Shown here in pieces: positions 2,204-20,694 of a stretch of 24,000 nucleotides of DNA. The DNA is from Clostridium mobile (lineage in GTDB: Bacteria; Bacillota; Clostridia; Clostridiales; Clostridiaceae). Below the pieces are notes generated by a model. It did no database searches. It was given only the letters and a program-made list of their open reading frames with translations, and was not told the origin of the DNA. The stretch is from assembly GCF_018918285.1 (NCBI RefSeq), contig NZ_JAHLQF010000001.1:673284-697283 (forward strand), given 5' to 3'. Numbering within the stretch: the first letter of the stretch is position 1; every line of letters starts with the position of its first letter. The translations under genes and the position numbers were made by a program.

Positions 2204-4615
2204 TTAAACTCTAACTATTCTCATAGCATTTAATACTGCAATTAGAGCCACTCCAACGTCTGCAAAAACCGCTGCCCACATATTTGTAAGTCCTAGTGCT
2301 GCTAATATCAGTACAAAAATCTTTACTCCAAGAGCAAAAACTATATTTTGCATAACAATTCTTCTTGTTTTTTTAGCTACTTGTATAGCAGTAATAAGCT
2401 TTGATGGTTCATCTGTCATTATTACAACATCTGAAGCTTCAATAGCAGCATCTGAACCAAGAGCTCCCATTGCCACTCCTATATCAGCCCTTCTTAATAC
2501 TGGAGCATCGTTTATTCCATCTCCAACGAATATTAAATTTCCTTTTTTATTTGAATAAAGTTTTTCTACAATATCAACCTTATCTCCTGGTAATAATTCT
2601 GAGTAAACTTTATCTATATTTAATATTTCTCCTACTTTCTCTCCTACCTTTTTGCTATCCCCTGTAAGCATAACAATGTTATTTATGCCTTTTTCCTTTA
2701 ATTTTTTAATAGCATCCTTGGAATCTTCTTTTATTTGATCTGATATAACCATATATCCCCAATATACTCCATCTACAGCTAAGTGAGTTATTGTTCCGTA
2801 ATCTTCAACCTCTTTACTCTTTATATTTTCCTTGCTCATTAATTTGTCATTTCCAAGCAATACTTTTTTTCCATCTATTAATGCCTTAACGCCCATTCCC
2901 CATATCTCTTCATAATCTTTAATTACATTCTTGTCTACTTCTTTTCCATAGTAATCTCTTATAGATATAGCTATAGGGTGATTTGAGAAACTTTCAATAA
3001 GAGCTGCTTTATAAGCAAAATCCTCTTTATTTATTCCTTCTTCTAAATATAAGTTATTTACTTTAAACTCTCCCTTTGTTAAAGTTCCAGTTTTATCAAA
3101 TACAACAGTATCTACATTATTTAATGCTTCAAGATAATTTCCACCCTTTACTAATATACCTTTCTTAGATGAAGCACCAATTCCACCAAAGAAAGTTAAA
3201 GGAATTGAAACTACCAATGCACATGGACAAGATATTACTAAGAATGTTAATGCTCTATATATCCATTCTGAGAAAGTTGCACCTTCAATAAATAAAGGTG
3301 GCAATATAGCTAAAGCAACTGCTGTAAATACAACTGCTGGAGTATAATATCTTGCAAATTTAGTAATAAACTTTTCTGTTGGCGCTTTTTTAGCTCCTGC
3401 ATTTTCTACCAAATCTAATATTTTAGCTACTGTTGATTGTCCATAATTTTTACTTACTTTAACCTTTAATAAAGCTGTTTTATTAATAAATCCAGAAAGT
3501 ATTTCACTTCCTTCTTTTACTCTTCTTTGAACAGATTCTCCTGTTAGAGCTGAAGTATCGATAAAAGATTCTCCTTCTAGTACAACTCCATCAAGAGGAA
3601 CTCTTTCTCCCGGTTTTACTATAACTACATCTCCAACTTCCACTTCTTCAGGTGAAACCTTGCTTATATTACTATCTACTAATAAATTTGCATAATCAGG
3701 CCTAATGTCTAATAGAGCAGAGATAGATTTTCTTGAACGATCTACAGCATAGTCTTGGAATATTTCACCTACTTGATAGAACAACATAACAGCTACAGCT
3801 TCAGCATAATCATTTATAGCAAAAGCCCCTAATGTAGCAACAGTCATTAGAAAATTCTCATCAAAAACCTGTCCTCTTGAAATATTTCTAAAGGCCTTTA
3901 ATACTATTTCTCCACCTATTAACAAGTAACTTATAATAAATAGGACTAATCCTATCATACCTTTATCTTTTAAAAGAGCTGCAATTATTGCAATTACTGC
4001 CCCTATTGCAATTTGATATATTTTTCTTTTTCCTTCAAATTTCTCTTCTCTTTCTTCTTCTATTTCTTTCGCTACTTCTTTTGCTTCCTCTACCTTTCTT
4101 ACCATAGGTGCATTTTTTTCAGATACTTTTACATCTGGTTCGTATTTATTAACTATCTCTTTAGTTTTATTTATTATACTCTCTTTATTTTTTTCTTCTT
4201 TTAAATTTATAGTCAGTACCTTAGATACAAAATTCATAGAAGCATCTTTAACTTCTGATAGTTCTCCAACTGCTCTTTCAATTTTTGCTGAACAATTAGC
4301 ACAATCTAATCCTTCTAAGATTAATTCTACTTTACTGATCTTATTTTCATGTTTCTGTATTTTTTTTATTTCAGCTATGGACTTTCTTTCCCTTACTTTC
4401 ACATGTGGTTCATATTTATTCACTGTTTCTTTAGTTTTGCCTAATACATTATCTCTATTTTTTTCTTCTTTTAACATTATAGTTAATACTTTAGTAACAA
4501 AGTTCATATAAGCGCTTTCTACTTCTTCAAAATTATTTACAGCTCTCTCTATTTTTGCTGAACAATTAGCGCAATCTAATCCATCTAATACTAATTCTAA
4601 TTTATTTCCTTTCAT
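2204..4615 (-). CDS. cadA: Heavy-metal (Cd/Zn/Co type, P1B) translocating P-type ATPase with two N-terminal HMA domains
   Basis: 803-aa ORF. GLDCANCSAKIERAV occurs twice (HMA metal-binding motif of the CadA type). It has the transmembrane CPC motif (VISCPCALVVS), the phosphorylation site DKTGTLT and the hinge VGDGINDAP. The RBS is GGGGGG, 8 nt before the ATG. Confidence 0.92.
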   Translation of the reverse strand: MKGNKLELVLDGLDCANCSAKIERAVNNFEEVESAYMNFVTKVLTIMLKEEKNRDNVLGKTKETVNKYEPHVKVRERKSIAEIKKIQKHENKISKVELILEGLDCANCSAKIERAVGELSEVKDASMNFVSKVLTINLKEEKNKESIINKTKEIVNKYEPDVKVSEKNAPMVRKVEEAKEVAKEIEEEREEKFEGKRKIYQIAIGAVIAIIAALLKDKGMIGLVLFIISYLLIGGEIVLKAFRNISRGQVFDENFLMTVATLGAFAINDYAEAVAVMLFYQVGEIFQDYAVDRSRKSISALLDIRPDYANLLVDSNISKVSPEEVEVGDVVIVKPGERVPLDGVVLEGESFIDTSALTGESVQRRVKEGSEILSGFINKTALLKVKVSKNYGQSTVAKILDLVENAGAKKAPTEKFITKFARYYTPAVVFTAVALAILPPLFIEGATFSEWIYRALTFLVISCPCALVVSIPLTFFGGIGASSKKGILVKGGNYLEALNNVDTVVFDKTGTLTKGEFKVNNLYLEEGINKEDFAYKAALIESFSNHPIAISIRDYYGKEVDKNVIKDYEEIWGMGVKALIDGKKVLLGNDKLMSKENIKSKEVEDYGTITHLAVDGVYWGYMVISDQIKEDSKDAIKKLKEKGINNIVMLTGDSKKVGEKVGEILNIDKVYSELLPGDKVDIVEKLYSNKKGNLIFVGDGINDAPVLRRADIGVAMGALGSDAAIEASDVVIMTDEPSKLITAIQVAKKTRRIVMQNIVFALGVKIFVLILAALGLTNMWAAVFADVGVALIAVLNAMRIVRV

Positions 4616-4692: not shown

Positions 4693-4768
4693 TATATATT
4701 TATGTGTATTTACTTTTTCTTTTTTATTATGTATTATAATTGTAATTTATTCTTAAGGAGGTATTATT

Positions 4769-6571
4769 ATGGAAAACACAAAAAAAATTAAAACTAGAGA
4801 TGAAATAGAGCCCAAATACAAATGGGCAATAGATAAAATCTATTCTAATGAATCTTTGTGGGAAGAAGATTTTTCAAAGTTAAAAGAACTTACTCCCAAG
4901 TTATCTCACTATGAAGGAAAACTTAGTGATGGAAAGGAACTGTTTAATTTCTTAAAGCTTGATGAAGAAATTAGTAGATTAGCAGAAAAATTACACATAT
5001 ATGCTCATTGTAGAGCTGATGAAGATACAGCTAATACTAAATATCAAGCACTATGGAATAAAATTGTGAGCTTTATTCCTCAAATCAATGCTGAAAAATC
5101 TTTTTTTCTTCCTGAAATACTAGCTATGGATGAAAAGCATCTACTAAAAGAAATTGAAAATATTCCTGAACTTAAGATATATTCCTTTGCTATTAATGAT
5201 ATATTGAATCTAAAGCCGCACACTTTAAGTAAAGGAGAGGAGAGAATTTTAGCTGCTGTAAGCGATTCTTTAGAAGCTCCCGCTAATATTTTTAATATAC
5301 TTTCAAATGCAGACATGACTTTTCCTAAAATAAAAGATGAGTCAGGTATTGAAGTTGAGCTTTCTGATAAAAATTATTCAATTTATATAACTTCAAAAGA
5401 TAGAAGAGTTAGAGAAGATGCCTTTAAAACTTTATTTTCAACCTACGAAAAATTTAAAAATACCTTTGCTACTTCATTAACATCTTCCATGAAAGCTTTC
5501 ATTTTTAATTCCCAAATGAGGAAATACTCTTCTTCTTTAGAAAGCTCATTAAAACCAAATAACATTCCTCTAGAAGTGTATTACAAAACTATAGAAACCA
5601 TAAACAATAACCTATCTGCCCTTCATAGATACGTTAAGATTAAGAAACAGTTATTAGGGCTAGAGGAAATTCATATGTATGATTTATACGTTCCAATTAT
5701 AAATACCCCTGATATAGAAGTATCTTATGAAGATGGGGTTAAATTAATAGAAAAAGGATTGAATCCTCTAGGAGAAGATTATTTAAAAATATTCAAAGGT
5801 GGCATAAAAGAAGGTTGGGTTGATGTATATGAAAATAAATGCAAAAGAGGAGGGGCTTATTCTACAGGTTCCTATGATACAATGCCTTACATACTTTTAA
5901 ATTACCACAATAAAATTAATGATGTATCAACTTTAGCTCATGAGATGGGTCACTCTATACACTCATATTACTCTAATAAAACACAACCTTATATTTACTC
6001 AAACTATACTCTATTCTGTGCGGAAGTTGCTTCAATCACTAATGAATGCATTTTAATTGACTACTTAATAAAAAATGAACAGGATAAACTGAAAAAACTA
6101 TACTATATTAACAACGAATTAGAACAGATTAGAACTACTGTATTTAGGCAAGTTATGTTTGCAGAATTTGAAATGATCACTCAAGGAGAACTTGAAAAAG
6201 GTACTCCATTGACTAGCGAAGAACTTTGCAACATATGGCATGATTTAAATGTAAAATACTTTGGACCTGAGATGATAGTAGATAAAGAAATAGACATGGA
6301 ATGGGCTAGAATACCTCACTTCTACTACAATTTTTATGTATACCAATATGCAACAGGCTTTGCTGCAGCAAATTCCTTTAGTGAAAGAATACTAAAAGGA
6401 GAAGAAGGTGCTTTAGAAAACTATATATCCTTCTTAAAAAGTGGTGGCAGTGACTACCCTATAAATCTATTGAAGAAAGCTGGAGTAGACATGACTACTT
6501 CAAAACCTATGGAAGATACTATAAATAGATTCAATGAATTATTAGATATGTTAGAAGAAACAATTTCTTAA
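4769..6571 (+). CDS. pepF: Oligoendopeptidase F (M3B metallopeptidase)
   Basis: 600-aa ORF with the zinc motif HEMGHSIH, M3-family length and typical N-terminal (KYKW) and C-terminal (GGS..P) segments. A strong RBS, AAGGAGG, precedes the ATG. Confidence 0.9.
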   Translation: MENTKKIKTRDEIEPKYKWAIDKIYSNESLWEEDFSKLKELTPKLSHYEGKLSDGKELFNFLKLDEEISRLAEKLHIYAHCRADEDTANTKYQALWNKIVSFIPQINAEKSFFLPEILAMDEKHLLKEIENIPELKIYSFAINDILNLKPHTLSKGEERILAAVSDSLEAPANIFNILSNADMTFPKIKDESGIEVELSDKNYSIYITSKDRRVREDAFKTLFSTYEKFKNTFATSLTSSMKAFIFNSQMRKYSSSLESSLKPNNIPLEVYYKTIETINNNLSALHRYVKIKKQLLGLEEIHMYDLYVPIINTPDIEVSYEDGVKLIEKGLNPLGEDYLKIFKGGIKEGWVDVYENKCKRGGAYSTGSYDTMPYILLNYHNKINDVSTLAHEMGHSIHSYYSNKTQPYIYSNYTLFCAEVASITNECILIDYLIKNEQDKLKKLYYINNELEQIRTTVFRQVMFAEFEMITQGELEKGTPLTSEELCNIWHDLNVKYFGPEMIVDKEIDMEWARIPHFYYNFYVYQYATGFAAANSFSERILKGEEGALENYISFLKSGGSDYPINLLKKAGVDMTTSKPMEDTINRFNELLDMLEETIS

Positions 6572-9204: not shown

Positions 9205-9783
9205 TTATCTCTTCACTATATAGAACTTAAATAGTGCAAGTATCTCTCTTAAAAAATAATAATATTCTTTTTCCTTATGCTCTGTAACAAAAGCCCCTGA
9301 GAAAGAAGCATCTATTCCAGTTTTTTTAGCCATTAAAGAAGCTCTTTTTAAGTGAAATTTGTTAGATACTACGATAGCTTTATCAAACCCTCTCTCCTCC
9401 ATGATTCTCTTACTCTGTTCTAAATTTTCCATGGTACTAGTGGATAAATCTTCTTTAATTATTGCATCTTCTGGTACACCTTTATTAACTAAATATCTTT
9501 TCATAGCTTCCGCTTCGCTTATATTTTCCCCTGGACCTTGTCCCCCTGAAGCGATTATATAATCCGCATATCCTTCTTTATATAGCCTATAACCTTCTTC
9601 TATTCTTGCCTTTAAAAATGGGCTAGGAGTCTCCCCATAAACACTACATCCAAGAATGATAATACTCTGGCTTTTTTCAGCTTTTGAATTCCACCCAAAA
9701 TTATAAATTTTTAAAGCTAAAACTAAACATAGTGATATGCCAAGTACAATTATCCATATAAACACCTTTTTAACTTTAGTCAT
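9205..9783 (-). CDS. YdcF/SanA/ElyC-like DUF218 membrane-anchored protein
   Basis: The track ORF runs to 9837. I prefer ATG at 9783 (MTKVKKVFIWIIV), preceded by AGAGGAGAG. It has an N-terminal transmembrane helix. The DUF218 pattern follows: IIILGCSVYG...IIASGGQG...SEAEAM..YL...G...I..E..STST.EN. Confidence 0.8.
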   Translation of the reverse strand: MTKVKKVFIWIIVLGISLCLVLALKIYNFGWNSKAEKSQSIIILGCSVYGETPSPFLKARIEEGYRLYKEGYADYIIASGGQGPGENISEAEAMKRYLVNKGVPEDAIIKEDLSTSTMENLEQSKRIMEERGFDKAIVVSNKFHLKRASLMAKKTGIDASFSGAFVTEHKEKEYYYFLREILALFKFYIVKR

Positions 9784-9988
9784 TTCATTCTCTCCTCTGT
9801 ACGTTATCTCATAGCTAACCGTAACTAATACCCACACCTATTTAAGTGGGACAATAATGTATCTAATTTCTTTGATTAGTTCAGTTAAAATTTACTATAT
9901 GATAATAGTATATCATTATTTGTACAAGTAAATTGAATTATATAGAAAAATTCCATTGAATAGGAAATTACAATTCAGTTTCACAAAC

Positions 9989-10054
9989 AGAGAGCTAAGC
10001 ATGTAGTGAAGCCGCTCTGAAAAAGTCGCTTTTTCACTACATGCTTAGCTCTCT
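9989..10054. repeat. Hairpin module B, copy 1 (perfect 22-bp stem)
   Basis: AGAGAGCTAAGCATGTAGTGAA (9989-10010) is the exact reverse complement of 10033-10054. The 22-nt loop is GCCGCTCTGAAAAAGTCGCTTT. Confidence 0.9.
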
Positions 10055-10140
10055 TAGGTTTTATAGAGATACTTTCTAATTAAATTATATAAGATTAGTT
10101 TGCAATTATAAATTTCTACAAGTATATATATATCAGAAAT

Positions 10141-10208
10141 AGGAACTGAGGTACATAATGACGTCGCGTCACAAAAAGGCGCTCCTCCCGCTATATACCT
10201 CAATTCCT
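10141..10208. repeat. Hairpin module D, copy 1
   Basis: AGGAACTGAGGTACATA (10141-10157) pairs with TATATACCTCAATTCCT (10192-10208) at 15 of 17 positions. The homologous copy is at 20298-20363. Confidence 0.85.
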
Positions 10209-10284
10209 TTATGTTTTACAGACATATTTTCAAATTTATATTATAACAGATTGTTTTCTCAAGCATTTATTTTTAAGATTTCAT

Positions 10285-10490
10285 GTGCAAAACTTAAAAA
10301 TGCTATGTAATGTGGCCTATGCATTTGAGCAAAATTTAGAAATTCTTAATTTATTTAGAAGGATGCCGTTAAAATGCTGCACATGTCTGACCGAAGGGAG
10401 TTTGTCAACATTAGGGATTTTTATAAAATAAATTTTAGAAGTTCTTATTGAAGCAAATCAGCATAATAAGCATTACATAGCATTTTTTAT
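10285..10490. repeat. Module E, the only full-length copy; MITE-like with 17-bp terminal inverted repeats
   Basis: AAAAATGCTATGTAATG (10296-10312) is the exact reverse complement of CATTACATAGCATTTTT (10471-10487). The left half recurs at 18039-18185, 18924-18986 and 19921-19985. Confidence 0.8.
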
Positions 10491-10688
10491 TTGTTTTACT
10501 TCTAAATTGTTTTCACAATTATAAGTTTCTATAAAGATAATGATGATAGATCTTTAGATAATAGATGTTGTGGAAATCTATTTTAGGAGATTTCTTAGAT
10601 TATTTAAAAATCCTATGATTTTATGGGGTTTTATTGTGATCTAAAATAATTATGCAGGAGCATTTATAAGCCCGGCTTGCCTTTAGCA

Positions 10689-11573
10689 TCACCATTCAAT
10701 ATCCTCGCATATTTTTAAAAACGCCTCTATCGAAGGAGAAATCCATTTATCTCTATGATGTACAACCTGAATGAACAATTTTAAGTCTTTCCCTGCCCAG
10801 TTAAGTTTGGCAAGCCTATGTGCAGCTATTTCATCATGGGCCTCATATAAGGGCAGCACTGTGATTCCAAAACCCAGCATAGCAAATTGTTTAAGTGTTT
10901 GTACGCTTCCTGTTTCCAGCATTGTCCGGAATGTTTCACGGGCATCCTCCATAACTGCCTGAAATAAATTTTGACAGCAGCAGCCGTGGGATACCAAAAG
11001 CATAGGATAGTTTGACACATCATGGGGAAAAACACTTTCTTTGTAAGCTAAAGGGTGGTCAGGTGAAACTAAGAGAGCCAAAGATTCTTCTCTTTGTATT
11101 TCAACCTTTAATTCGGGGGCATGCCATGCCCTGTCTAATAATACCGCGATATCAATTTGATTTTCTTTCAACCATATTTCCAATTCGTCTGTTGAGCCAA
11201 TCTTTATGCTGAATTCCACCTCTGGATACTGCTTATGATATTCTTCCAGCAATTTAGGCAATTTAGCCGCACAAATGGATTCGTCTGCTCCGATTGTAAG
11301 AATTCCACGCGGGAATTTTGATGAAGAGAGTAAACCCTTTGCCTTTTCCCATGAACAAAGAAGTTCTCTTGCATATATAAGAAATTCTTCGCCTTCGGGT
11401 GTAAGGCATACTTTTTTACCTAATCTGTCAAATAAACGTACCCCCAGCTCCTTTTCCAGCATTTGAATTTGTGACGTTACAGAGGATTGAGCATATCCAA
11501 GCTGATCAGCCGCCTGCGTAAAATTATGCAAAGTAGCTACAGTTATAAATGCGTTAATTAATCTGATATCCAT
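10689..11573 (-). CDS. LysR-family transcriptional regulator
   Basis: 294-aa ORF with an N-terminal HTH (FITVATLHNFTQAADQLGYAQSSVTSQIQMLEKELGVRLFDR) and a substrate-binding-domain length typical of LTTRs. It is divergent from the nitroreductase gene. G+C is higher than the flanks. Confidence 0.9.
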   Translation of the reverse strand: MDIRLINAFITVATLHNFTQAADQLGYAQSSVTSQIQMLEKELGVRLFDRLGKKVCLTPEGEEFLIYARELLCSWEKAKGLLSSSKFPRGILTIGADESICAAKLPKLLEEYHKQYPEVEFSIKIGSTDELEIWLKENQIDIAVLLDRAWHAPELKVEIQREESLALLVSPDHPLAYKESVFPHDVSNYPMLLVSHGCCCQNLFQAVMEDARETFRTMLETGSVQTLKQFAMLGFGITVLPLYEAHDEIAAHRLAKLNWAGKDLKLFIQVVHHRDKWISPSIEAFLKICEDIEW

Positions 11574-11736
11574 AGATTTTATCCTTTCATCTGTTTTTTC
11601 GATTTATCCAATAGAAACAATCAATTTCACCGATTTAAAAAATTATGTTATCATAATACCACATATCAAAAGCAAAAGACAACGCTTTGTTTTTGGCGTT
11701 GTATATTTGCGGGATTAAAGAACTGGAGGTATCTGT

Positions 11737-12240
11737 ATGAAGGAAATTTTTAACCGCAGAAGTATTCGGAAATTTAAGAATATACCTGTGGAGAAAGAAA
11801 AAACAGATAGATTGCTGCGGGCAGCTATGCAAGCTCCCTCGGCACTCAATCAACAGCCATGGGAATTTATTGTTGTTGAGGATAAAGCGTCCTTACAAAA
11901 ACTATCTAAGTCTATACCTGATGCAAAACCGGTTGAGAATTCAGGGCTAACATTGATTCTTGCAGCAAACAGCAGCAAGTTCAGATTTGAACCGGATTGG
12001 CAGTCGGATATGAGTGCGGCAGCGCAAAATATCTTATTGGAAGCGGTTCATTTGGAGCTTGGAGCTGTGTGGATAAGTATTTCATCTGTGGATTCCGCCA
12101 TAAGTTATGTGAAGGAGATGTATAAACTGCCTTCTCATATTAAGCCCTTTGCATTGATTGCCGTTGGTTATCCGGATAATCAGAAAAATCAATTTATAGA
12201 TCGATATAATGCTGAAAAAATCCACTATGAGAAATGGTAA
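11737..12240 (+). CDS. Nitroreductase-family (FMN-dependent) oxidoreductase
   Basis: 167-aa ORF. RRSIRKF...L.AA..APSA.N.QPW.F and the C-terminal GYP motif are typical of the family. The RBS is GGAGG. Confidence 0.85.
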   Translation: MKEIFNRRSIRKFKNIPVEKEKTDRLLRAAMQAPSALNQQPWEFIVVEDKASLQKLSKSIPDAKPVENSGLTLILAANSSKFRFEPDWQSDMSAAAQNILLEAVHLELGAVWISISSVDSAISYVKEMYKLPSHIKPFALIAVGYPDNQKNQFIDRYNAEKIHYEKW

Positions 12241-12369
12241 GTGAAGGGCCAAAATGCGAATAGCATGAAAAATTGAAAAGGAGAAATTAGAGGATATTCA
12301 AGCTTAGTGGAAGCAAAAGATTTGGGAAAGAGCAGCAACAAAAATTCAATTTAGAAAGGATGATATTCG

Positions 12370-12951
12370 ATGGGTAAGAAAATTCTTGTTATCACTGGAA
12401 GTCCCCGAAAAAAAGGAAACAGCTTCGCCATGACGGACGCTTTTGTCAATGCCGCAGAAGCAAAAGGCCACACCGTAACACGTTTTGATGCGGCGTTTAT
12501 GAATGTAGGCGGATGCCGTGCGTGTGATACCTGCTTCCAAACAGGTAGAGCATGTAGCTTCGATGATGATTTCAACACAATAGCCCCGGAAATTGAGGCG
12601 GCGGACGCGATTGTATTCACTTCTCCGGTGTATTGGTACACTTTCAGCGCACAAATCAAGGCTGTCATGGACAAATTGTATGCCTTTATGACCGTAGAAA
12701 AAGATATTGCGAATAAGAAGCATGGGTTCGCAAGAAAAGGTATTGGGGGTAAGAAGTACGGATTGATATCCTGCTATGAAGAAAATGATATGTCCGTTAT
12801 GGACGGCGTTCGTTTTTCTTATGAACGCACTGTTACAATGCTTAAAGGGACGTCTGTTGGTGAAGTGTTAATCCCGAACGTGTGGGACGTTAACGATATT
12901 CAAAAAACCGAGGGCATCGAGCAGGCTAAAGCTCTGGCAGAGAAATTTTAG
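12370..12951 (+). CDS. Flavodoxin-fold NAD(P)H-dependent FMN reductase, iron-sulfur flavoprotein (Isf)-like
   Basis: 193-aa ORF. ILVITGSPRKKGNS is the FMN-reductase P-loop-like motif. The compact cysteine cluster CRACDTCFQTGRAC (C-x2-C-x2-C-x6-C) matches the Isf [4Fe-4S] motif. The overlapping minus-strand ORFs at 12346-12723 are shadows. Confidence 0.8.
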   Translation: MGKKILVITGSPRKKGNSFAMTDAFVNAAEAKGHTVTRFDAAFMNVGGCRACDTCFQTGRACSFDDDFNTIAPEIEAADAIVFTSPVYWYTFSAQIKAVMDKLYAFMTVEKDIANKKHGFARKGIGGKKYGLISCYEENDMSVMDGVRFSYERTVTMLKGTSVGEVLIPNVWDVNDIQKTEGIEQAKALAEKF

Positions 12952-12989
12952 TGTTCGGCTTTATGTGTATATAATATTATACTAACACC

Positions 12990-13112
12990 ACAGATTGTTT
13001 TCTTGTACAAATATAGATTTCTACAAAGATAATTTAGTTTCACAAACAGAGAGCTAAGCATATAGTGAAGCCGCTCCATGAAAAGTCGCTTTTTCACTAC
13101 ATACTTAGCTCT
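12990..13112. repeat. Module A plus hairpin module B, copy 2
   Basis: Module A is ACAGATTGTTTTCTTGTACAAATATAGATTTCTACAAAGATAAT. The hairpin arms are 13050-13069 and 13093-13112, pairing at 18 of 20 positions. Both mismatches are C:A or A:C on the plus strand. Confidence 0.85.
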
Positions 13113-13280
13113 ATTGATCTAAATGGTTGGAAATAACTAAACCAGATAAAGATGTTATTGGAAATGTAAGATTACTTTTAGATAGTATTATCGAGCCTAT
13201 TTATGTAAAAATAAGAACAGTATAGGAAAAGGCAACTTGTCTCTTTGCTTGATAAATATATGTAAATTATGTTAGTGACT

Positions 13281-13330
13281 TAAAGATATTAATTATATAA
13301 TAAAAGAATAGTTAATACGTTATGGTAAAG
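13281..13330 (+). repeat. Module C, copy 1 (contains TATAAT at 13296-13301)
   Basis: TAAAGATATTAATTATATAATAAAAGAATAGTTAATACGTTATGG is homologous to 16437-16482, 18196-18245 and 19071-19118. Confidence 0.8.
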
Positions 13331-13356
13331 AAATGCGAAATCAAGGAGAAAGAGAT

Positions 13357-13476
13357 ATGGGTTCAGAAACCAAACAAAGACTTGAACGATTAAAAGAAGA
13401 AAAAAATGCAAAATACGGATTTGTTATTAGTATAGATGAATACCAAGATATCAGTATTGAATTCTGGGGTATATAG
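13357..13476 (+). CDS. Possible 39-aa small protein (MGSETKQRLERLKEEKNAKYGFVISIDEYQDISIEFWGI)
   Basis: Below the ORF-track size cutoff. AAGGAG lies 8 nt upstream of the ATG. The ORF starts 27 nt after module C. I recognise no homology. Confidence 0.3.
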   Translation: MGSETKQRLERLKEEKNAKYGFVISIDEYQDISIEFWGI

Positions 13477-13519
13477 ATAACATATCTTTAGCAGTAAAAT
13501 ATGACGTAATCTTCTTAAA

Positions 13520-13548
13520 TTGTGTAACTGTCTACTATTTAGTATAAT
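13520..13548 (+). promoter_or_regulatory. Sigma-A type promoter of the yjdF-like gene
   Basis: TTGTGT (13520-13525), a 17-nt spacer, then TATAAT (13543-13548). Confidence 0.55.
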
Positions 13549-13554
13549 AATTTT

Positions 13555-13668
13555 ATGGAGATAAAAACACAGTTTCGGTTGGTAGTCCGAACCTATAATT
13601 TAAATATATAGCAGTAACCTGCCCTCCTGGGGTTGTCCATTCTCCGTTATTAGATTTTAAACAGGAGG
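13555..13668 (+). ncRNA. Candidate yjdF-motif (azaaromatic-responsive) riboswitch or structured leader
   Basis: A leader of about 125 nt lies between the promoter and a DUF2992/YjdF-family CDS, which is the genomic context that defines the yjdF motif. Nested helices are visible: ATGGAGA (13555-13561) with TCTCCGT (13641-13647), and TTCGG with CCGAA around 13574-13591. CCTCCTG (13623-13629) is the exact complement of the Shine-Dalgarno region CAGGAGG (13662-13668). Confidence 0.5.
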
Positions 13669-13678
13669 TAATTTTATT

Positions 13679-14095
13679 ATGTATGCAAGTGTAAAATTGA
13701 CTGTATTTTTTGAAGAACCATTTTGGGTGGGTGTACTTGAAAAATGCGACTATGATTCTATATGTGTTTGTAGAGTAGTTTTTGGTGAAGAACCAAAGGA
13801 TTATGAGATTTATGAATTTCTATTAAAAGAATATAGAAATCTCAAATTTAGCAGCCCTATATCTACTGATAAAATTGAAAAAGACAAAATAAATCCTAAA
13901 AGACTCCAAAGGAAAATTAAAAGAGAAATTAAAAACACTGGAGTTGGAACAAAAGCACAACTTGCTATGAAACAACAGTATGAAGTAAACAAAACTGAAA
14001 AAAGAAAAATTTCAAGAGAAGAAAAGGAACAAGAAAAAGAAAGACAGTATGCATTACGACAACACAAAAAGAAGGAAAAACACAGAGGACATTAG
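13679..14095 (+). CDS. yjdF: YjdF-family protein (DUF2992)
   Basis: 138-aa ORF. The N-terminal KLTVFFEEPFWVGVLE...VVFGEEPKD matches my recollection of the DUF2992 pattern. So does the lysine/arginine-rich C-terminus INPKRLQRKIKREIKN...KAQLAMK...KKKEKHRGH. Confidence 0.8.
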   Translation: MYASVKLTVFFEEPFWVGVLEKCDYDSICVCRVVFGEEPKDYEIYEFLLKEYRNLKFSSPISTDKIEKDKINPKRLQRKIKREIKNTGVGTKAQLAMKQQYEVNKTEKRKISREEKEQEKERQYALRQHKKKEKHRGH

Positions 14096-14162
14096 TCATA
14101 ATATGCGTATAGAGCACACAACATTGTAAAACAAATAAAGAAATAGTGAATATAGAAAAAAT

Positions 14163-14202
14163 AAAACATCGCACTATTCAAAAATAAATTTTGCGGTGTT
14201 TT
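14163..14202 (+). terminator. Possible terminator of the yjdF-like gene
   Basis: AAAACATCGCA (14163-14173) pairs with TGCGGTGTTTT (14192-14202), 11 bp including one G:U. The loop is long (18 nt) and the T run is part of the stem. Confidence 0.35.
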
Positions 14203-14293
14203 TATACGGTCTTTTAAATATATTACAACATAAATGTAACATAATTACCATTAGTTAAGTCGAAATAGTAGAATTATACATCTCAATCTTAGA

Positions 14294-14330
14294 AAATAAG
14301 GTAGGTCCACAAAATGACTCTACCTTATTT
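14294..14330. terminator. Terminator hairpin, most likely for the minus-strand DUF169 gene
   Basis: The stem is a perfect 11-bp pairing of AAATAAGGTAG (14294-14304) with CTACCTTATTT (14320-14330). T runs follow on both strands. Confidence 0.65.
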
Positions 14331-14363
14331 TATATTTTCCAAAATAGGTGCTAATTTCTTTGA

Positions 14364-15080
14364 CTAAATCCTTTCTGCAATTTGTAGCCACGTTTTCTTA
14401 GTCAAAAAGCTTTCTTCAACTTGTTCCTCTAACTCTAGAAAACGTTTATATGGTATACTAAAGGAAAGTATATCTTTATCGATGAATTTACGAGCTGATG
14501 GGTCTGTTAACCCGATAATGCACTTTGGATTCTCCGATTCCGTTTGTTCCATAGAATAGAGTATTGATTGCACACAGCCAGAAGCAAAGTCAACCTTGAC
14601 ATTATTCTGAGTCGGCTTATCGTAATTAGCAAACTGAACTAGAGCGGAAAGTTGGTCAGCATTAACTAGGAAGACAATTATCTCTGGTGTTTCTTCCTCT
14701 GTCAATTCTGCTAAGGGCTTAAAAACCATATAGTTTTTCGTATTAACTTCGGGTAATTTAGTAACAAATTCTGTAGCTAGCTTAGGGTTCTTTTTATAAA
14801 ATTCTCCCTCTTTATTTCCTACCCCTCCAGTTGATAGAAAATATTCAATATAACTTAACTCAAACCGTTTGAAACCCAGTCCAGCTTTACCACCCACACA
14901 GGTAGTTGTATTAACATCAAACATAGCGACACGACCTTTGGAAGAAGCATTTAACATTGAGATTACACATCCCCACTTTCCTTCCTGAAACTGTAGAGCG
15001 CCCTCATGCTTAACATCTGTTCGAAATACTGCAACTGGTTGATTTTTAAGTTTTATAGCCTGCCCAATCTTGCTATTCAT
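14364..15080 (-). CDS. DUF169-domain protein (COG2043-like)
   Basis: The track ORF runs to 15098 (TTG). I prefer ATG at 15080 ([18 protein letters not shown]), preceded by GGAAGGAAG. The segment [16 protein letters not shown]...[10 protein letters not shown] matches my recollection of DUF169 proteins. Confidence 0.7.
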
Positions 15081-15178
15081 CTTAGCACTTCCTTCCAAAT
15101 TATTTATTAATTTGCATATTAAAATAAATTAAATTCCCTCCTTTAATTATATTACTCTATCAATATTTATATCTAACC

Positions 15179-15296
15179 AAAATTGTTTCACATTTATAAA
15201 TTTCTACAAATATAATTAAATTTCCAAATCATAGAGCTAAGTACATATTGAAGCCGGTCCAATGAAAAGTCGCTTTTTCAATACATACTTAGCTCT
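15179..15296. repeat. Module A plus hairpin module B, copy 3
   Basis: Module A is AAAATTGTTTCACATTTATAAATTTCTACAAATATAAT (TTCACA-N18-TATAAT). The hairpin arms are 15233-15252 and 15277-15296, pairing at 18 of 20 positions. Confidence 0.85.
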
Positions 15297-15379
15297 CTTG
15301 TATTTTATAACTACATTTTATTTTCAAATCATAATAAATTAGTTTTTATATTTTCTCAACAGTATATATTCATTAGTTT

Positions 15380-16273
15380 TTATTTAAAATACTTTTTTAA
15401 CTGCTCTAAACTATCAATATCAAATATATCTGTAGCTATAACGTCAATAGTTTCTTCATCCAAAGATTTTATCTTTTCTTTATATTCCTCAGGAAAAGTT
15501 TTAAATTTTTTTATAAGCTGTTTTATAAGAATTTCTGATTTACCTTCCTCTTTTCCCTTCTTTATACCTTCCTTTAGTCCTTCTTTTACGCCATCCTCTC
15601 TCAACATCTTTCCTATTTCGGTCATAGATATCAACTCCTTAAATTTTATTTTCGATAATTCATCTCCAAATTTATCAAACAAAGCATATAGTAAACTTAA
15701 ACATTGCAATTTCTCATTACCTTCTGGCATTTTACCCGCTAACTCTATACTGTCTAAAGTTCTTTTGCTTCTACTTTCCTTACCATTCATCAAAGGTATA
15801 AAACTTAGTGTTACTATATCCTTACCGCTTAAAGTGTCTCCTCTTTCTATTTTATCCTCTAAACGCTTTAATTTTTCATCGCCGTCTAAATTCTTCATGT
15901 AAAAAGCTTCTACTTCATATTTTATAGTCCCTGCATCTATAGAAGTTTCAACATCTTCTATGTCTGCTGAATAAATTACTATGGTCCTTATTTTTCTCTT
16001 TTTCTTATAAAAAAGCGATGCATCATAATATAGAAATCTCTTAATGTCTTCCTTTTTATTCGTAGTCTGAAATTCAAAATGTAGATAACTTCCATCTTCC
16101 GTGTAAAAAAGATAGTCAGTATAGTTAGTTTTAATATCTATGTTCTTTATTTCAGTTTCTGCTGGAGCTATTATTTTAGTGTCTATTCCAAAAAATTTTA
16201 CAGCATTGTCTTTAAAGAATTCCATAGCCTTTTTCAAAACTGCATCCTCTACCTTATTATAATCCATATTCAT
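15380..16273 (-). CDS. Rpn/YhgA-like recombination-promoting nuclease (PD-(D/E)XK 'putative transposase' family)
   Basis: 297-aa ORF. The N-terminal nuclease core shows ...TDYLFYTEDGSYLHFEFQTT.... A Lys/Glu-rich linker (KEGLKEGIKKGKEEGK) and the C-terminal helical domain are typical of clostridial Rpn paralogues. Confidence 0.75.
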   Translation of the reverse strand: MNMDYNKVEDAVLKKAMEFFKDNAVKFFGIDTKIIAPAETEIKNIDIKTNYTDYLFYTEDGSYLHFEFQTTNKKEDIKRFLYYDASLFYKKKRKIRTIVIYSADIEDVETSIDAGTIKYEVEAFYMKNLDGDEKLKRLEDKIERGDTLSGKDIVTLSFIPLMNGKESRSKRTLDSIELAGKMPEGNEKLQCLSLLYALFDKFGDELSKIKFKELISMTEIGKMLREDGVKEGLKEGIKKGKEEGKSEILIKQLIKKFKTFPEEYKEKIKSLDEETIDVIATDIFDIDSLEQLKKYFK

Positions 16274-16394
16274 CCTCTCTTTCTACTGGTAATTATACAT
16301 TGGTATATTCCATATTATTTCCAACAAAAAAAGTTTTATACGAATATACGTTCGTAAATTTATTTTAGAAAATTAGACATCTAAATATCTAACT

Positions 16395-16482
16395 AAAATT
16401 ATTTTCTAATTTATAAATTTCTACAAAATGATTATAGTAAAGATGTTCATTATATAATAAAATAACAGTTACTACGTTAAGG
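16395..16482. repeat. Module A plus module C, copy 2
   Basis: AAAATTATTTTCTAATTTATAAATTTCTACAAAATGATTAT is followed by GTAAAGATGTTCATTATATAATAAAATAACAGTTACTACGTTAAGG. It is nearly identical to 19029-19118. Confidence 0.85.
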
Positions 16483-16508
16483 ATGTGATATATTAATCAC
16501 ATCCTTAA
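16477..16508. terminator. Hairpin downstream of the 16514-17275 gene
   Basis: The stem is a perfect 13-bp pairing of TTAAGGATGTGAT with ATCACATCCTTAA, with a 6-nt loop. There is no clean U tract on either strand. Confidence 0.4.
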
Positions 16509-16513
16509 AACTA

Positions 16514-17275
16514 TTAGTTATTCCACTTTTGCCAGTTTGAATCATGTTTTTTTAACGTTACATTATTAACTCTGAGCCTTCCATTTTCAAATACGTACTC
16601 CATGACAATGACAGCTATACTTACATCATTACCGACAACTATATTCATTTCAGCTATCAATTTGTTATCAATCACTTTATATTCCTGTACAGATCCAAAA
16701 CCAACTTCATTACCCCAATACGCAAGACTTGACTCCTTAGCCGTCATAGTATGATCATTACCTTTAATATTTATAGTAACAGTTACAATACCATCTTTCT
16801 TTGTCAATTTTCCTTTGATATTTTGGTATATGCCTTCACGTGGGTCCATTACATAAATGTCATAAAAAAAGCCCTCTTTATCAAACCTAAAGACATGGAC
16901 ATCTTGTAGTAATATTCCTGTACCATAACCTGATGTTGATATTACAATTAACTCTTTTTTTCCATCATTATTTATGTCACTTAGATTAAATGTAGGTTTC
17001 CGCACTGGGTTTGTATCTATTTGCCAACAAGAAAAGTACTTTTCATGATCTCTTACAGAAAGCACTATTTCTCTATATACGCCATCGTGTTCTTCTGCCC
17101 TCTTCCAGTCCATAGCATATAAATAAATATTCTCTTCTGTCCATGAAGATATTAGTTTGCCATCTTTTACATTCCAAAGAGCTTTGTCTAACGCTTTGTT
17201 TGTTGATGATATAGGTACACTATTTATAAAACTTGCTATTAATATCGGTAGTATGAAACATATTTTAAAAAACAT
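16514..17275 (-). CDS. Secreted hypothetical protein with an FG-GAP/VCBS-like DxNxDGxxE segment
   Basis: The track ORF runs to 17284 (GTG). I prefer ATG at 17275, 6 nt after GAGGTG. The N-terminal signal-like sequence is MFFKICFILPILIASFINS. DINNDGKKELIVIS resembles a calcium-binding FG-GAP-type turn. Confidence 0.6.
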   Translation of the reverse strand: MFFKICFILPILIASFINSVPISSTNKALDKALWNVKDGKLISSWTEENIYLYAMDWKRAEEHDGVYREIVLSVRDHEKYFSCWQIDTNPVRKPTFNLSDINNDGKKELIVISTSGYGTGILLQDVHVFRFDKEGFFYDIYVMDPREGIYQNIKGKLTKKDGIVTVTINIKGNDHTMTAKESSLAYWGNEVGFGSVQEYKVIDNKLIAEMNIVVGNDVSIAVIVMEYVFENGRLRVNNVTLKKHDSNWQKWNN

Positions 17276-17401
17276 GATAATCACCTCTACATAGTATGTA
17301 CATTTGATGATTTATTAATAATTCATCCTTTTCTTATGCTATATCGGCAAAGTAATAAATGACGGACTAAAAAATTTGAGCTAGTATTCATACTATCTCA
17401 A

Positions 17402-17830
17402 CTATTGAGGAATGTAACTTTTAATATGTTCAAATTTTTCAATTTTAACATTACCTCCTGCACTTACTATGAAAGTAATATTGTCAGTACCTACAGTGTT
17501 ATGCGCACCAATGTATGGATTTACTTGCAGTTTGATGATGAAAAGTTCTGTACGGTTACCATTAGGTCGTTCAACACTTAAAATATCAGTGCTCCAATTA
17601 TCAAAACTATATGATTTACCATAGTAATCCGTTATTGCCTTACTGATATATGGCTCAAGAAGCGTAAAAAAGATATCTTGATACAATTCTTCTCTTGAAC
17701 CTTCAGGTGGTCTGTAAGGATTGACCATAAACAATATTTTTTTATTATCCGACGCATATACAGTATTAAAAGAAAATATATTCATAACTATCATTATTGA
17801 AATAACTATAACAAATATAAACTTTTTCAA
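17402..17830 (-). CDS. Secreted DUF3888-like protein
   Basis: The track ORF runs to 17845. TTG at 17830 (KKFIFVIV...) follows a perfect GGAGGTGA RBS. It has a signal peptide ending in VYA. The pattern ...LEPYISKAITDYYG...W...IL.V.R......F.I.L.V.PY.GAHN..G.D.ITF matches my recollection of DUF3888. Confidence 0.6.
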   Translation of the reverse strand: MKKFIFVIVISIMIVMNIFSFNTVYASDNKKILFMVNPYRPPEGSREELYQDIFFTLLEPYISKAITDYYGKSYSFDNWSTDILSVERPNGNRTELFIIKLQVNPYIGAHNTVGTDNITFIVSAGGNVKIEKFEHIKSYIPQ

Positions 17831-17929
17831 GCTAATCACCTCCATAATTATTCCTATATTAGTTTATACTAATACAAGTTATTAATTAGTGGAAGGTAAA
17901 TGTGATAATGGTATAAAATATAAGTTTGT

Positions 17930-18245
17930 ATTGTATGTTGAGAAGTAATCTTCTTATATTGCATAGCAATATATAGTTGAACCTTAACATAAGATGCAAC
18001 CAATTTTTCTCTCAAATATTTATCTCTTAAATTCTATTGTGTAAAACTTAAAAATGCTATGTAATGCGCCATATGTATTTGAGCAAGATTTAGAAATTCT
18101 TAATTTATTTTAGAAAAATACCATTAATATGCTGTACATGTCTGACCGAAGGGAGTTTGTCAGCATTAGGGAGTTTTATAAATAGAATAATTATAACAAA
18201 GATATTCATTATATAATAAAAAAACAGTTAATATATTATAGTAAG
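17930..18245. repeat. Intergenic mosaic, module order G-E(left half plus core)-C
   Basis: G is ...GTTGAACCTTAACATAAGATGCAACCAATTTTTCTCTCAAATATTTATCTCTTAAATTCTATT. E spans 18039-18185 and includes the ATGCTG...CTGACCGAAGGGAG...CAGCAT core. C spans 18196-18245. Confidence 0.85.
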
Positions 18246-18285
18246 TTTGTGTGTAATAAAGATTTATTTTAAACGAGGTGATGAG

Positions 18286-18816
18286 ATGAAATCACTACCA
18301 AATTTTATATCCTTTAGTAGAATAATTTTTTCTTTGATTTTAATTTATACTAAGCCATCGAGCTCAGCCTTTTATGTAATATATATTATTTGTGGATTTA
18401 GTGACATTATAGATGGATTTATTGCCAGGAAGACAGGCACAACAAGCACTCTTGGTGCAAAGCTTGATTCCATAGCTGACATGATAATGGCAGGTGTATT
18501 GTTGCTTTTGATTTACCCAATTTTAAATCCTACAACTAAAGTTGTTATTTGGATTGTTTTAATTGGTATGATTAGATTATCATCCATGTTTGTAGCCATG
18601 AAAAAATATAAAACTTTTGCAAGTATTCATACTTACGGAAATAAAATTGCTGGTATAATTTTGTTCCTGTTCCCTATACTGATTCCCTATGTTAATACAA
18701 CTATATTAATGTATATAACTTGTATTGTGGCAAGTATATCGGCAATTGAAGAACTGATTATTCAACTCACATCAAACAAACTGGAATTAAATAAACAAAG
18801 TATATTCATAAAATGA
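18286..18816 (+). CDS. CDP-alcohol phosphatidyltransferase-family membrane protein
   Basis: The track ORF starts at 18247. I prefer ATG at 18286 (MKSLPNFISF), after GAGGTGATGAG. The signature D-x2-DG-x2-AR-x8-G-x3-D-x3-D is present as DIIDGFIARKTGTTSTLGAKLDSIAD. The protein is multi-pass and hydrophobic. Confidence 0.85.
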   Translation: MKSLPNFISFSRIIFSLILIYTKPSSSAFYVIYIICGFSDIIDGFIARKTGTTSTLGAKLDSIADMIMAGVLLLLIYPILNPTTKVVIWIVLIGMIRLSSMFVAMKKYKTFASIHTYGNKIAGIILFLFPILIPYVNTTILMYITCIVASISAIEELIIQLTSNKLELNKQSIFIK

Positions 18817-18820
18817 GGGA

Positions 18821-19118
18821 AATTTTTTAATAGAAACTATAGCGGACGCTGAAGTAAGAGGTTGAACCTTAACATGAGATCCAATCAATTTTTTTCTCAA
18901 ATATTTATCTTTTAAATTTTATTGTGAAAAACTTAAAAATGCTATGTAATGGGGCTTATGCATTTGAGCAAGATCTAGAGACTTTTAAAGATAGTTAGAT
19001 TAATAGATAAATAGATAAATATCTAACTAAAATTATTTTCTTATTTATAAAATTCTACAAAATGATTATAGCAAAGATGTTTATTATATAATAAAATAAC
19101 AGTTAATACACTATAGTT
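18821..19118. repeat. Intergenic mosaic, module order G-E(left)-F(partial)-A-C
   Basis: G spans 18821-18923, E 18924-18986, F 18987-19028, A 19029-19069 and C 19071-19118. All are co-oriented with the other copies. Confidence 0.85.
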
Positions 19119-19223
19119 ATATATTACGAATTATCAACATGTTATACATAGAAAATAGTATAGAAGGAAGGTGTACTTTAGTGAGAGTTTGGTACTTATT
19201 ATACACTCTCTTACTAAAGATAA

Positions 19224-19676
19224 ATGATGAATATCGAAATTAGAGAGATTACATCTGAAAACTTAAAAGAAGTTTTATCTCTACATGTAAGTGAAACCCA
19301 AAAATCATATGTGGAATCTACAAAACAATGTTTAAAAGATGCTACAGAATGTAATTGTTATCGACCTACAGGTCTTTATCAGGATGGGATTATGGTTGGA
19401 TTTGCAATGTATGGATTTTTTCCTGATGAGGATGGAAATGGTCGGGTGTGGTTGGACAGATATTTAATTGATGAGCGTTTTCAAGGAAAAGGACTTGGAA
19501 GTATTATGTTAGAGGAATTAATTACACACCTTATTAAAATATATAATTGTAATAAAATTTATTTAAGTCTTTATGAAGACAATCAGCGAGCTCTCCATTT
19601 ATATCAAAAATTCGGCTTTCACTTTAATGGAGAGTTAGACATTAATGGAGAAAAAGTAATGGTAAATGTATTATAA
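19224..19676 (+). CDS. GNAT-family N-acetyltransferase
   Basis: 150-aa ORF with the acetyl-CoA binding motif RFQGKGLGSIML (Q/R-x-x-G-x-G/A) and the typical C-terminal ...A..LY.K.GF segment. No obvious SD lies directly upstream. Confidence 0.85.
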   Translation: MMNIEIREITSENLKEVLSLHVSETQKSYVESTKQCLKDATECNCYRPTGLYQDGIMVGFAMYGFFPDEDGNGRVWLDRYLIDERFQGKGLGSIMLEELITHLIKIYNCNKIYLSLYEDNQRALHLYQKFGFHFNGELDINGEKVMVNVL

Positions 19677-20142
19677 ATACTACTTTTGTGTGTCAATAAT
19701 TATTTAATTAGATTTCACACATTTTTATATTACTCTATCAATTATATATATAACAGAGTAAAATTTTTTAATAGAAGCTATAGTGTATGTTGAAGTAAGA
19801 GCTTGAACCTTAAGATAAGATGTGCTTAAAGATGTTTAGATAATCAAATCAATAGATGGTATTTAAGTTCTATTATGTTTTACAGATCTTTTCCCGAGTA
19901 ATAGTAAACACTTATTCATAGTGCAAAACTTAAAAATGCTATGTAGTGCGCTCTATACATTTGAGCAAAATCTAGAAACTTCTAAAGATAGTTAGATTAA
20001 TAGATAAATAGATACGGTGGAAATCCTTTAATAGGGTTTCTCTATTATCTAAAAATCTAAAAAAACTAAACATCTAAGTATCTGATAAAAATTCTTTTCA
20101 TATTTATAAATTTCTACAAATATAATTAATTTTCCAAATCAT

Positions 20143-20206
20143 AGAACTAAGCACGTATTGAAGCCGCTCCAATAAAAGGTCGCTTTTTAAATACATACTT
20201 ATCTCT
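20143..20206. repeat. Hairpin module B, copy 4 (most degenerate)
   Basis: The arms AGAACTAAGCACGTATTGAA (20143-20162) and TTAAATACATACTTATCTCT (20187-20206) pair at 15 of 20 positions. Confidence 0.8.
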
Positions 20207-20297
20207 TTTATAGTTTACAAAGATACTTTCTAAATTAAATTATATAAGATTAGTTTACAATTATAAATTCTCACAAACATATTTATATATCAGAAAG

Positions 20298-20363
20298 AGG
20301 ACCTAAGTACATAATGATGTCACTTCTGAAAAAGGCGTTCCTCCCACTATATACTTAGTTCCT
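20298..20363. repeat. Hairpin module D, copy 2
   Basis: AGGACCTAAGTACATA (20298-20313) pairs with TATATACTTAGTTCCT (20348-20363) at 14 of 16 positions. Relative to copy 1, both arms changed together (GAGG/CCTC became AAG/CTT). Confidence 0.8.
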
Positions 20364-20694
20364 TTATGTTTTACAAATGTATTCAATAGGCTAATAGATA
20401 ATAAATTTGATGGAAATCCATTTAAAGAAATTACTTTACTATCCAACAGGTTAATAATTCTCACAATCGTTTGAAAGGATGTATGGAGCAAATTATTATT
20501 TTGAGTCAGATAATTTTTCGCCAGTAAGTATTTCAAATAGCTTTGCTGACTTATTCTTGTCTAATTGAACATATTTACTTTCACTGTCTATTACGAGTTC
20601 CACTTTGTCATTGTTTGGACTAATCCATAGGTCATATATTTATAAAGCAACAAACTTTAAGAAAGCAGCGAAAAATTATATCATGATGAATATC

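Follow-up and report, generated by a model that had tools for sequence, protein, structure and literature searches.

Hairpin B of Clostridium mobile MSJ-11 is a real and selected structure, and the strand that folds is the minus strand of the DNA analyzed here, a stretch of 24,000 nucleotides (the window; contig NZ_JAHLQF010000001.1, positions 673,284 to 697,283) in which four copies are found. B is a new repeat family; terminator-like interspersed RNA hairpins are already a known type of element. On balance, and with a modest lean only, B is read here as an interspersed, terminator-like RNA hairpin of 3′ ends, analogous in its architecture to the SPRITE repeats of pneumococci. The functional form would be a rod-like RNA hairpin within transcripts of the minus strand. 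Located behind the 3′ ends of genes, it would most likely form the 3′-end structure of the transcript, acting as an intrinsic terminator and/or as a block to exonucleases, and would take the place of the ordinary short terminator. If this is true, B is the Clostridia counterpart of SPRITE, i.e., a repeat which has taken over the terminator or 3′-end role of ordinary short hairpins.

The four copies in the window, described in a first-pass annotation of this DNA, were found again with their arms and with one common orientation, and all of them are recognized on the minus strand by the covariance model described below. Copy 1 (unit 9973–10070, stem 9989–10054) scores 110 bits, copy 2 (unit 13032–13130, stem 13050–13112) 103.9 bits, copy 3 (unit 15215–15314, stem 15233–15296) 105.1 bits, and copy 4 (unit 20125–20224, stem 20143–20206) 95.3 bits. 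The unit of about 100 nt consists of a 12-nt flank motif (ATATTTGTRAAAC), a stem of 19–22 bp, a short apical helix, and the same motif ATATTTGTRAAAC again, and the stem-loop itself is 63–66 nt long. In copy 1, the arms at 9989–10010 and 10033–10054, of 22 nt each, are 100% complementary and enclose a 22-nt loop. The window is AT-rich (30% GC), and the RNA folds of copies 1 and 3 on both strands, as well as that of copy 2 on the plus strand, are better than those of all 200 shuffled sequences, with one shuffle in 200 reaching the copy 2 fold on the minus strand. The corresponding z-scores for the two strands are −7.8 and −8.3 for copy 1, −5.0 and −6.1 for copy 2, and −4.7 and −5.3 for copy 3. 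Copy 4 is the most degraded of the four and has kept its folding on the minus strand only, where z = −2.7 is significant, in contrast to −0.9 on the plus strand. The loop had also been described as conserved. Its conservation is seen, and the loop pattern is expected by chance in 0.00 cases according to shuffled sequences, but a part of this conservation is due to ascertainment, as most copies outside the window were found by the loop pattern itself. A conserved open reading frame spanning the hairpin was ruled out, because indels in the loop change the frame between copies.

The collection of further copies and the building of a covariance model had been proposed as a check. The model, built for the minus strand from 17 copies and run on the window and on the fetched loci, recovered 19 intact copies and one truncated copy (locus L008) from three related genomes: C. 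mobile MSJ-11 and the metagenome-assembled genomes “Clostridiaceae bacterium AA2” and “uncultured Clostridium sp. ERR9969075_bin.7” (bin.7). When 185,579 species genomes were scanned with the loop pattern, real copies outside C. mobile came up in AA2 and bin.7 only; 18 of the 29 matches were chance occurrences in high-GC genomes, lacking a hairpin. Hairpin B was absent from metagenomes in two scans, with no match in one and a single chance match in the other, and from viral collections, where one scan returned 39 chance matches in coding sequences without a hairpin and the other was empty. A BLAST search of plasmids and phages gave no match to B. The proposed Rfam search brought no family for B either: at the gathering thresholds of Rfam 15, the sole match in the whole window is a yjdF riboswitch located elsewhere, and of two permissive searches, neither of which yielded a family for B, the one at E ≤ 10 returned only chance matches to generic hairpin models. 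One short-read contig (Logan, L078) ends within a hairpin B (4756–4814). Since B breaks assemblies in this manner, copy counts from draft genomes are underestimates.

The same covariance model also detects, at 39–64 bits, 13 copies of a sister element, D. Two of them are located on the minus strand of the window, at 10125–10225 (43.2 bits, E = 8.6e-8) and at 20281–20380 (52.5 bits). The first is co-oriented with copy 1 of B, with about 55 nt between the units, and the second stands in tandem with copy 4; the remaining 11 copies lie in loci L002, L003, L009, L010, L012, L013, L016, and L028. D has flanks and an overall architecture like those of B and differs from it in stem and apex, with a 20-bp stem and an apex reading GGGAGG on the minus strand (CCUCCC on the plus strand). 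Its orientation is that of B in every case, and the two often stand in tandem, at about 130–160 nt from start to start. Judged from these shared sequence features, the constant co-orientation, and the frequent tandems, B and D are diverged paralogues. Together they are a low-copy family of interspersed intergenic repeats, with tens of copies, confined to MSJ-11 and its two close relatives.

Selection on pairing had been proposed from compensatory substitutions, and these are indeed present. The change from G:C to T:A at stem position 16 of the first-pass annotation (position 18 of the 22-nt arm) and that from C:G to T:A at its position 10 (position 12 of the arm) were both recovered. Across all copies, four stem pairs of B are changed on both sides, a covariation score reached by 1 of 500 shuffles, and seven stem pairs of D are changed on both sides (0 of 500 shuffles). 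Covariation in D extends to an indel, where GAGG/CCUC in some copies stands against AAG/CUU in others. The apical helix of 4 bp is an RNAalifold prediction which no compensatory change backs, and the idea of a loop helix supported by covariation was dropped for this reason.

The minus strand had further been proposed as the folded one, on the basis of stem mismatches that are C:A or A:C on the plus strand and thus G:U on the minus strand. A recount by column gave the same numbers of such mismatches, two in copy 2 (two G:U pairs on the minus strand), two in copy 3, and three in copy 4, the last of which also carries two non-transition mismatches. Energies, paired cells, and G:U counts all favor the minus strand. 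It is the more stable strand in 20/20 copies of B (by a mean of −6.8 kcal/mol) and in 12/13 copies of D. The RNAalifold consensus of B reaches −32.35 kcal/mol on the minus strand versus −15.02 kcal/mol on the plus strand, where the fold has an open center, and standard pairs make up 94.1% of the stem cells on the former versus 87.2% on the latter. The wobble pairs are distributed unequally, with 36 G:U cells in the B stem on the minus strand against 8 on the plus strand, six of which occupy the second pair from the foot of the stem; D by itself, after removal of an alignment artefact, shows 26 against 11. The caution that copies share their ancestry was justified, since counting by column reduces the polarity to 9 versus 3, which is not significant (p = 0.15).

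Two further observations bear on the origin of this polarity. The first is the pair U30:G71, which is the majority state in B (12/17), with U:G in the matching column of all 13 D copies; the wobble is thus older than the split between B and D. The second is the spectrum of transitions in unpaired columns. In B, the changes that would create G:U pairs (C>T or A>G) occur in 9 unpaired columns and the changes G>A or T>C in 16; the corresponding numbers for D are 9 and 18. The change T>C is seen in 12 of 17 unpaired T columns versus 3 of 14 stem T columns. Such a bias predicts the reverse polarity, so that mutation bias was ruled out as its source and selection on pairing of the minus strand is the better explanation. 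B thus offers a clear instance in which wobble direction, read against the mutation spectrum of unpaired columns, reveals which strand of a repeat is functional, with no recourse to expression data.

The position of the copies relative to genes points to the 3′ ends of transcripts. At least one gene 3′ end faces 17 of the 19 intact B copies, and the upstream gene is co-directional for 14 of the 19. Where the co-directional gene is at most 140 nt away, no intervening hairpin better than −6 kcal/mol was present in five of six cases. For 12 of the 19 copies, there is in addition an opposite-strand gene whose 3′ end points toward the hairpin. The use of B is therefore at least partly bidirectional, and such use by itself leaves the polarity unexplained.

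A role at 3′ ends is also supported by two comparisons of genes with and without B, over four loci each, in which canonical terminators were found only where B is missing or broken. The first concerns the region downstream of a sigma-54 regulator gene. With an intact B, no significant hairpin follows the stop codon in bin.7 (L029, z = −0.8), nor in a C. mobile-like contig in which B is cut by the contig end (L078, z = −1.4). In AA2 (L074, 11360–11430), the 5′ half of B is deleted between two GACTTTTT repeats, and a strong canonical terminator of −16.1 kcal/mol (z about −6) is present at the stop codon; in C. tetanomorphum (L076), where B is absent, a strong canonical terminator of −19.3 kcal/mol is found there (z about −6). 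The second comparison concerns a gene on the minus strand (15380–16273) for an Rpn/TIGR01784-like putative nuclease with DUF4351, the 3′ end of which is followed by B in all three carrier genomes (counterparts at L002 4622–5488 and L070 10001–10861). Hairpin B is located about 65–100 nt past the stop codon, and the neighbors of the gene in C. mobile differ from those in AA2 and bin.7. In the window, copy 3 is the first stable hairpin past the stop, with its unit beginning 66 nt beyond it, and there is no other structure downstream here or in L070 (z = +0.4 and −0.4, respectively). The Rpn homologues of 75–80% identity in L072 and L073 have no B and are followed by canonical terminators. The nuclease as an obligate partner of B was ruled out, because a single orthologue group is linked with the hairpin and distant homologues occur without it.

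Several properties of B fit an ordinary terminator less well. With its 22-bp stem, and in overall length as well, B greatly exceeds the ordinary local terminators, and an automated terminator scan with a loop limit of 3–8 nt made no call at hairpin B. Since the ordinary terminators of this genome have stems of 8–12 bp, B would be an oversized replacement. The U-rich tail is the poorer of the two on the strand that folds, with 4.7 U in 9 nt versus 6.3 in 9 on the plus strand. Termination or stabilization of the transcript is the activity we infer for hairpin B, and the tandem B–D arrays and the conserved loop suggest something beyond termination alone.

The closest known parallel is SPRITE of Streptococcus pneumoniae, an element with an 18-bp duplex and a U-rich tail which is enriched at the 3′ ends of coding sequences and whose orientation tracks the coding bias (PMC3049150, 2011). 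Both elements are interspersed and restricted to a lineage, their duplexes (18 bp in SPRITE, 22 bp in B) extend much beyond those of normal Firmicute terminators, a U-rich tract follows the duplex, and the copies lie near the 3′ ends of coding sequences in an orientation mirroring the coding bias. The features that define a SPRITE-like class are found in B as stems of 22 bp against 8–12 bp, 17/19 copies at 3′ ends, and, in 11 of 13 loci, a folding strand that is rich in G. The two elements belong to different genera, and B is taken here as an analogue by architecture rather than as a member of SPRITE. It differs additionally in its conserved apex of about 20 nt, the flanking direct repeats, the sister element D, the arrangement in tandem arrays, and the presence of a promoter-like module on the other strand.

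This promoter-like module, A, is the basis of the reading that survives best after the terminator-like one, which is nevertheless an unlikely one. Here each unit would be a gene for a plus-strand small RNA, with module A as the promoter, the hairpin as the body, and the U-rich tail as the terminator, and the units would form tandem arrays of paralogues; such RNAs might be antisense partners of the minus-strand transcripts that carry the same hairpin. Small RNA paralogues in tandem arrays are known from the LhrC and csRNA families. In the window, module A is located on the plus strand and points into copies 2, 3, and 4 of B, reading TGTACA-N18-GATAAT at 13004–13033, TTCACA-N18-TATAAT at 15187–15216, and TTCATA-N18-TATAAT at 20097–20126, respectively. 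The last two had been reported as promoter-like signals in conflict with folding of the minus strand. Both sites were found, but this AT-rich region shows no excess of such matches, with 71 against an expectation of 59.7 ± 7.4. The conflict is sharpened by the better U-tail on the plus strand, a feature that speaks for the small RNA genes. So do the plus-strand loops of B and D with their CUCC and CCUCCC motifs, the tandem arrangement of B and D with a module A before each, and the retention of the −35/−10 spacing and of −10 positions A2 and T6 in all 14 A modules before B.

Module A points into 14 of the 19 B copies on the plus strand and is missing at the other five, namely copy 1, its orthologue in L025, and the copies in L070, L003_7086, and L016_2197. 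Module A is therefore dispensable, and the five include the two best hairpins (copy 1 and that of L070), which weighs against a small RNA gene. The spacer of module A is moreover conserved like its hexamers, so that no selection specific to a promoter can be discerned, and the stem mismatches on the plus strand are nearly all C:A or A:C, with the consensus fold of that strand open in its center. A combination of both strands is very doubtful. In such a sense–antisense system of B/D and module A, minus-strand mRNAs ending in the hairpin with its conserved apex of about 20 nt would meet complementary plus-strand RNAs from module A, and the many near-identical copies would pair in trans through loop–loop contacts, co-regulating the stability of mostly accessory genes. 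Only if the plus-strand promoter is active would a long-standing question be touched.

Slightly less credible than small RNA genes is the proposal that the folded species is single-stranded DNA. According to this proposal, the minus-strand sequence, exposed on the lagging-strand template, is recognized by a nuclease or recombinase of the HUH/RAYT, IS200/IS605, or integron type, and the hairpins are mobile or serve as sites of cassette recombination; in an alternative wording, they are single-strand recombination sites which assemble the variable gene array at 10074–20689. A strand-specific fold is what it predicts, and the G-rich strand does fold in 11/13 loci. The copies are co-oriented inside every locus, units come and go as indels, the hairpins border a region where the gene content differs between C. 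mobile and bin.7, and the Rpn-like gene together with its B stands in another context in C. mobile than in AA2 and bin.7. The strand that folds is the gene-rich one and at the same time the sequence that the lagging-strand template exposes; its orientation therefore cannot tell RNA from single-stranded DNA. With DNA parameters, the difference between the strands drops to 2–3 kcal/mol, and copy 4 as single-stranded DNA has no significant fold on either strand. The predicted apical helix contains two adjacent U:G pairs. Since wobbles are the majority or even invariant state at some columns, and because of these adjacent apical pairs, the weaker strand difference with DNA parameters, and the behavior of copy 4, RNA appears favored over single-stranded DNA in these models.

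The first-pass annotation had likened the hairpins to integron attC sites or to REP/IS200-type hairpins, and the comparison did not bear this out. The palindrome of an attC site has the core sites R″ (RYYYAAC) and R′ (GTTRRRY) at its feet. None of the 38 copy-strands has the two motifs together at a distance of up to 24 nt from the unit ends, and copy 1, with its perfect 22-bp stem, has no extrahelical bases; the mismatches of the other copies are transition wobbles and not bulged bases. Neither an integrase domain nor a Y1_Tnp domain was present in the 20 window ORFs scanned. The likeness to attC is limited to a fold specific to one strand and to co-oriented copies within a variable gene array: all six B and D units of the window are co-oriented between variable genes, which lie on both strands, with more than one gene in several segments. 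In contrast to an integron, IntI is lacking among the window ORFs, and the flanking genes point in either direction and are served by promoters of their own.

REP elements measure 20–40 bp and are marked at one of their ends by a GTAG or CGTC tag; inverted pairs are frequent, and RAYT proteins are associated with these elements (PMC3733652, Di Nocera et al. 2013). Like B, they are palindromic extragenic repeats found 3′ of coding regions, where the genes on either side are unidirectional or convergent, and they may form RNA hairpins (PMC3733652). B differs from them in its length of 66–100 nt, its longer stem, the absence of the tag in all 19 copies, and the constant co-orientation of neighboring copies, among which no inverted pair of the BIME kind was found. 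The arms of B form inverted repeats by construction, and a copy-specific target duplication of the MITE type is missing, as the direct repeat ATATTTGTRAAAC is identical in all copies on both sides of the stem. Two indels illustrate the gain or loss of units: a D+A segment of 201 nt at L002 4221–4421, compared with the orthologous site in L070, is bounded by ATTTATT/ATTTAGTT, and the missing half of B in L074 was deleted between the two short repeats named above. Microhomology at both junctions fits deletion rather than transposition and counts against mobile or recombining single-stranded DNA, as does the lack of copies in phage and plasmid collections. B is therefore not an attC site, a REP, or a classical MITE.

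Functionless palindromes, selfish or decaying and MITE-like, would account for the data if the polarity arose from shared ancestry and strand-asymmetric mutation, and this is quite improbable. Low copy number and a narrow lineage agree with such an origin, the truncated copy of L008 and the half-deleted one of L074 resemble decay, and the polarity counted by column is, as stated, not significant. Four results oppose it: the direction of the transitions in unpaired columns is the reverse of the one required, covariation is present in B and D both, one U:G pair has been retained over the B/D split, and a canonical terminator is absent exactly where B is intact. Modular intergenic repeats of another kind are represented by BOX, BIME, and Correia elements, which like modules A, B, D, and E are shuffled between sites and give stable stem-loops when transcribed (PMC3049150, PMC3184786), and Correia elements carry promoters and are targets of RNase III (PMC3049150, PMC3184786). 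B is different in having neither terminal inverted repeats that bound a larger element nor a TA or other target duplication, and in its number of tens rather than hundreds of copies. Finally, a double-stranded palindrome bound by a dimeric protein, although in keeping with the perfect palindrome of copy 1 and with the conserved loop and flanks, is scarcely credible and was ruled out by the strand polarity of the mismatches, because a symmetric site predicts none and the cells number 36 versus 8, with energy differences between the strands in 32/33 copies.

The genomic setting of the terminator-like hairpins is a variable region at 10074–20689, between the core genes DUF218 (9205–9837) and ROK (20695–21867), whose gene content differs from that of the syntenic region of bin.7 (L025/L012). 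It includes an island of 40% GC at 10689–12951 with genes for a LysR regulator, a nitroreductase, and an FMN reductase. The repeat modules are located between the gene segments. Copy 1 forms the exact left edge of the region, as synteny with L025 stops at 10074, and in bin.7 the right break is adjoined by a D unit. From these positions, the repeats appear to mark recombination borders or to take part in their formation; a dedicated recombinase is not evident among the window ORFs. Units that break short-read assemblies and mark the borders of variable regions are useful for the annotation of C. mobile and its relatives.

Other elements were observed in the same DNA. The yjdF (azaaromatic) riboswitch (RF01764) lies on the plus strand at 13551–13656, just upstream of a DUF2992 gene (13679–14095), and scores 88 bits against a gathering threshold of 45. 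Module E, of about 210 nt, is located at 10283–10500 and repeated at 17976–18182, 18861–19017, and 19915–20014. It is closed by a long-range stem of 18 bp (AAAAAUGCUAUGUAAUGU / GCAUUACAUAGCAUUUUUU), its fold has z = −3.2 on the plus strand and −4.9 on the minus strand, and the part at 10324–10459 gives a weak, sub-threshold match to TwoAYGGAY (RF01731; 26 bits against 43). Module E may be an unrecognized structured RNA repeat. A further promoter-like module (AAAGATRTTNATTATATAATAAAA...) occurs on the plus strand at 13282–13345, 16439–16502, 18198–18261, and 19073–19136. Three of these four copies immediately precede genes of the plus strand (a small ORF, a CDP-alcohol phosphatidyltransferase, and a GNAT acetyltransferase), which suggests that the accessory genes reuse one promoter module. 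A short-hairpin module (GGAAATCT...AGATTTCT) with TAGATAATAGAT motifs is found at 10545–10625 and 20006–20060 as well as in L025, L016, and L009; as it can come after module A as well as after hairpin B, shuffling of the modules is evident. Outside the variable region, a P-type ATPase gene (2204–4615) contains a tandem duplication of 270 nt at 4113–4604 on the minus strand, of 78–88% identity, which probably corresponds to two Pfam matches to heavy-metal-associated (HMA) domains.
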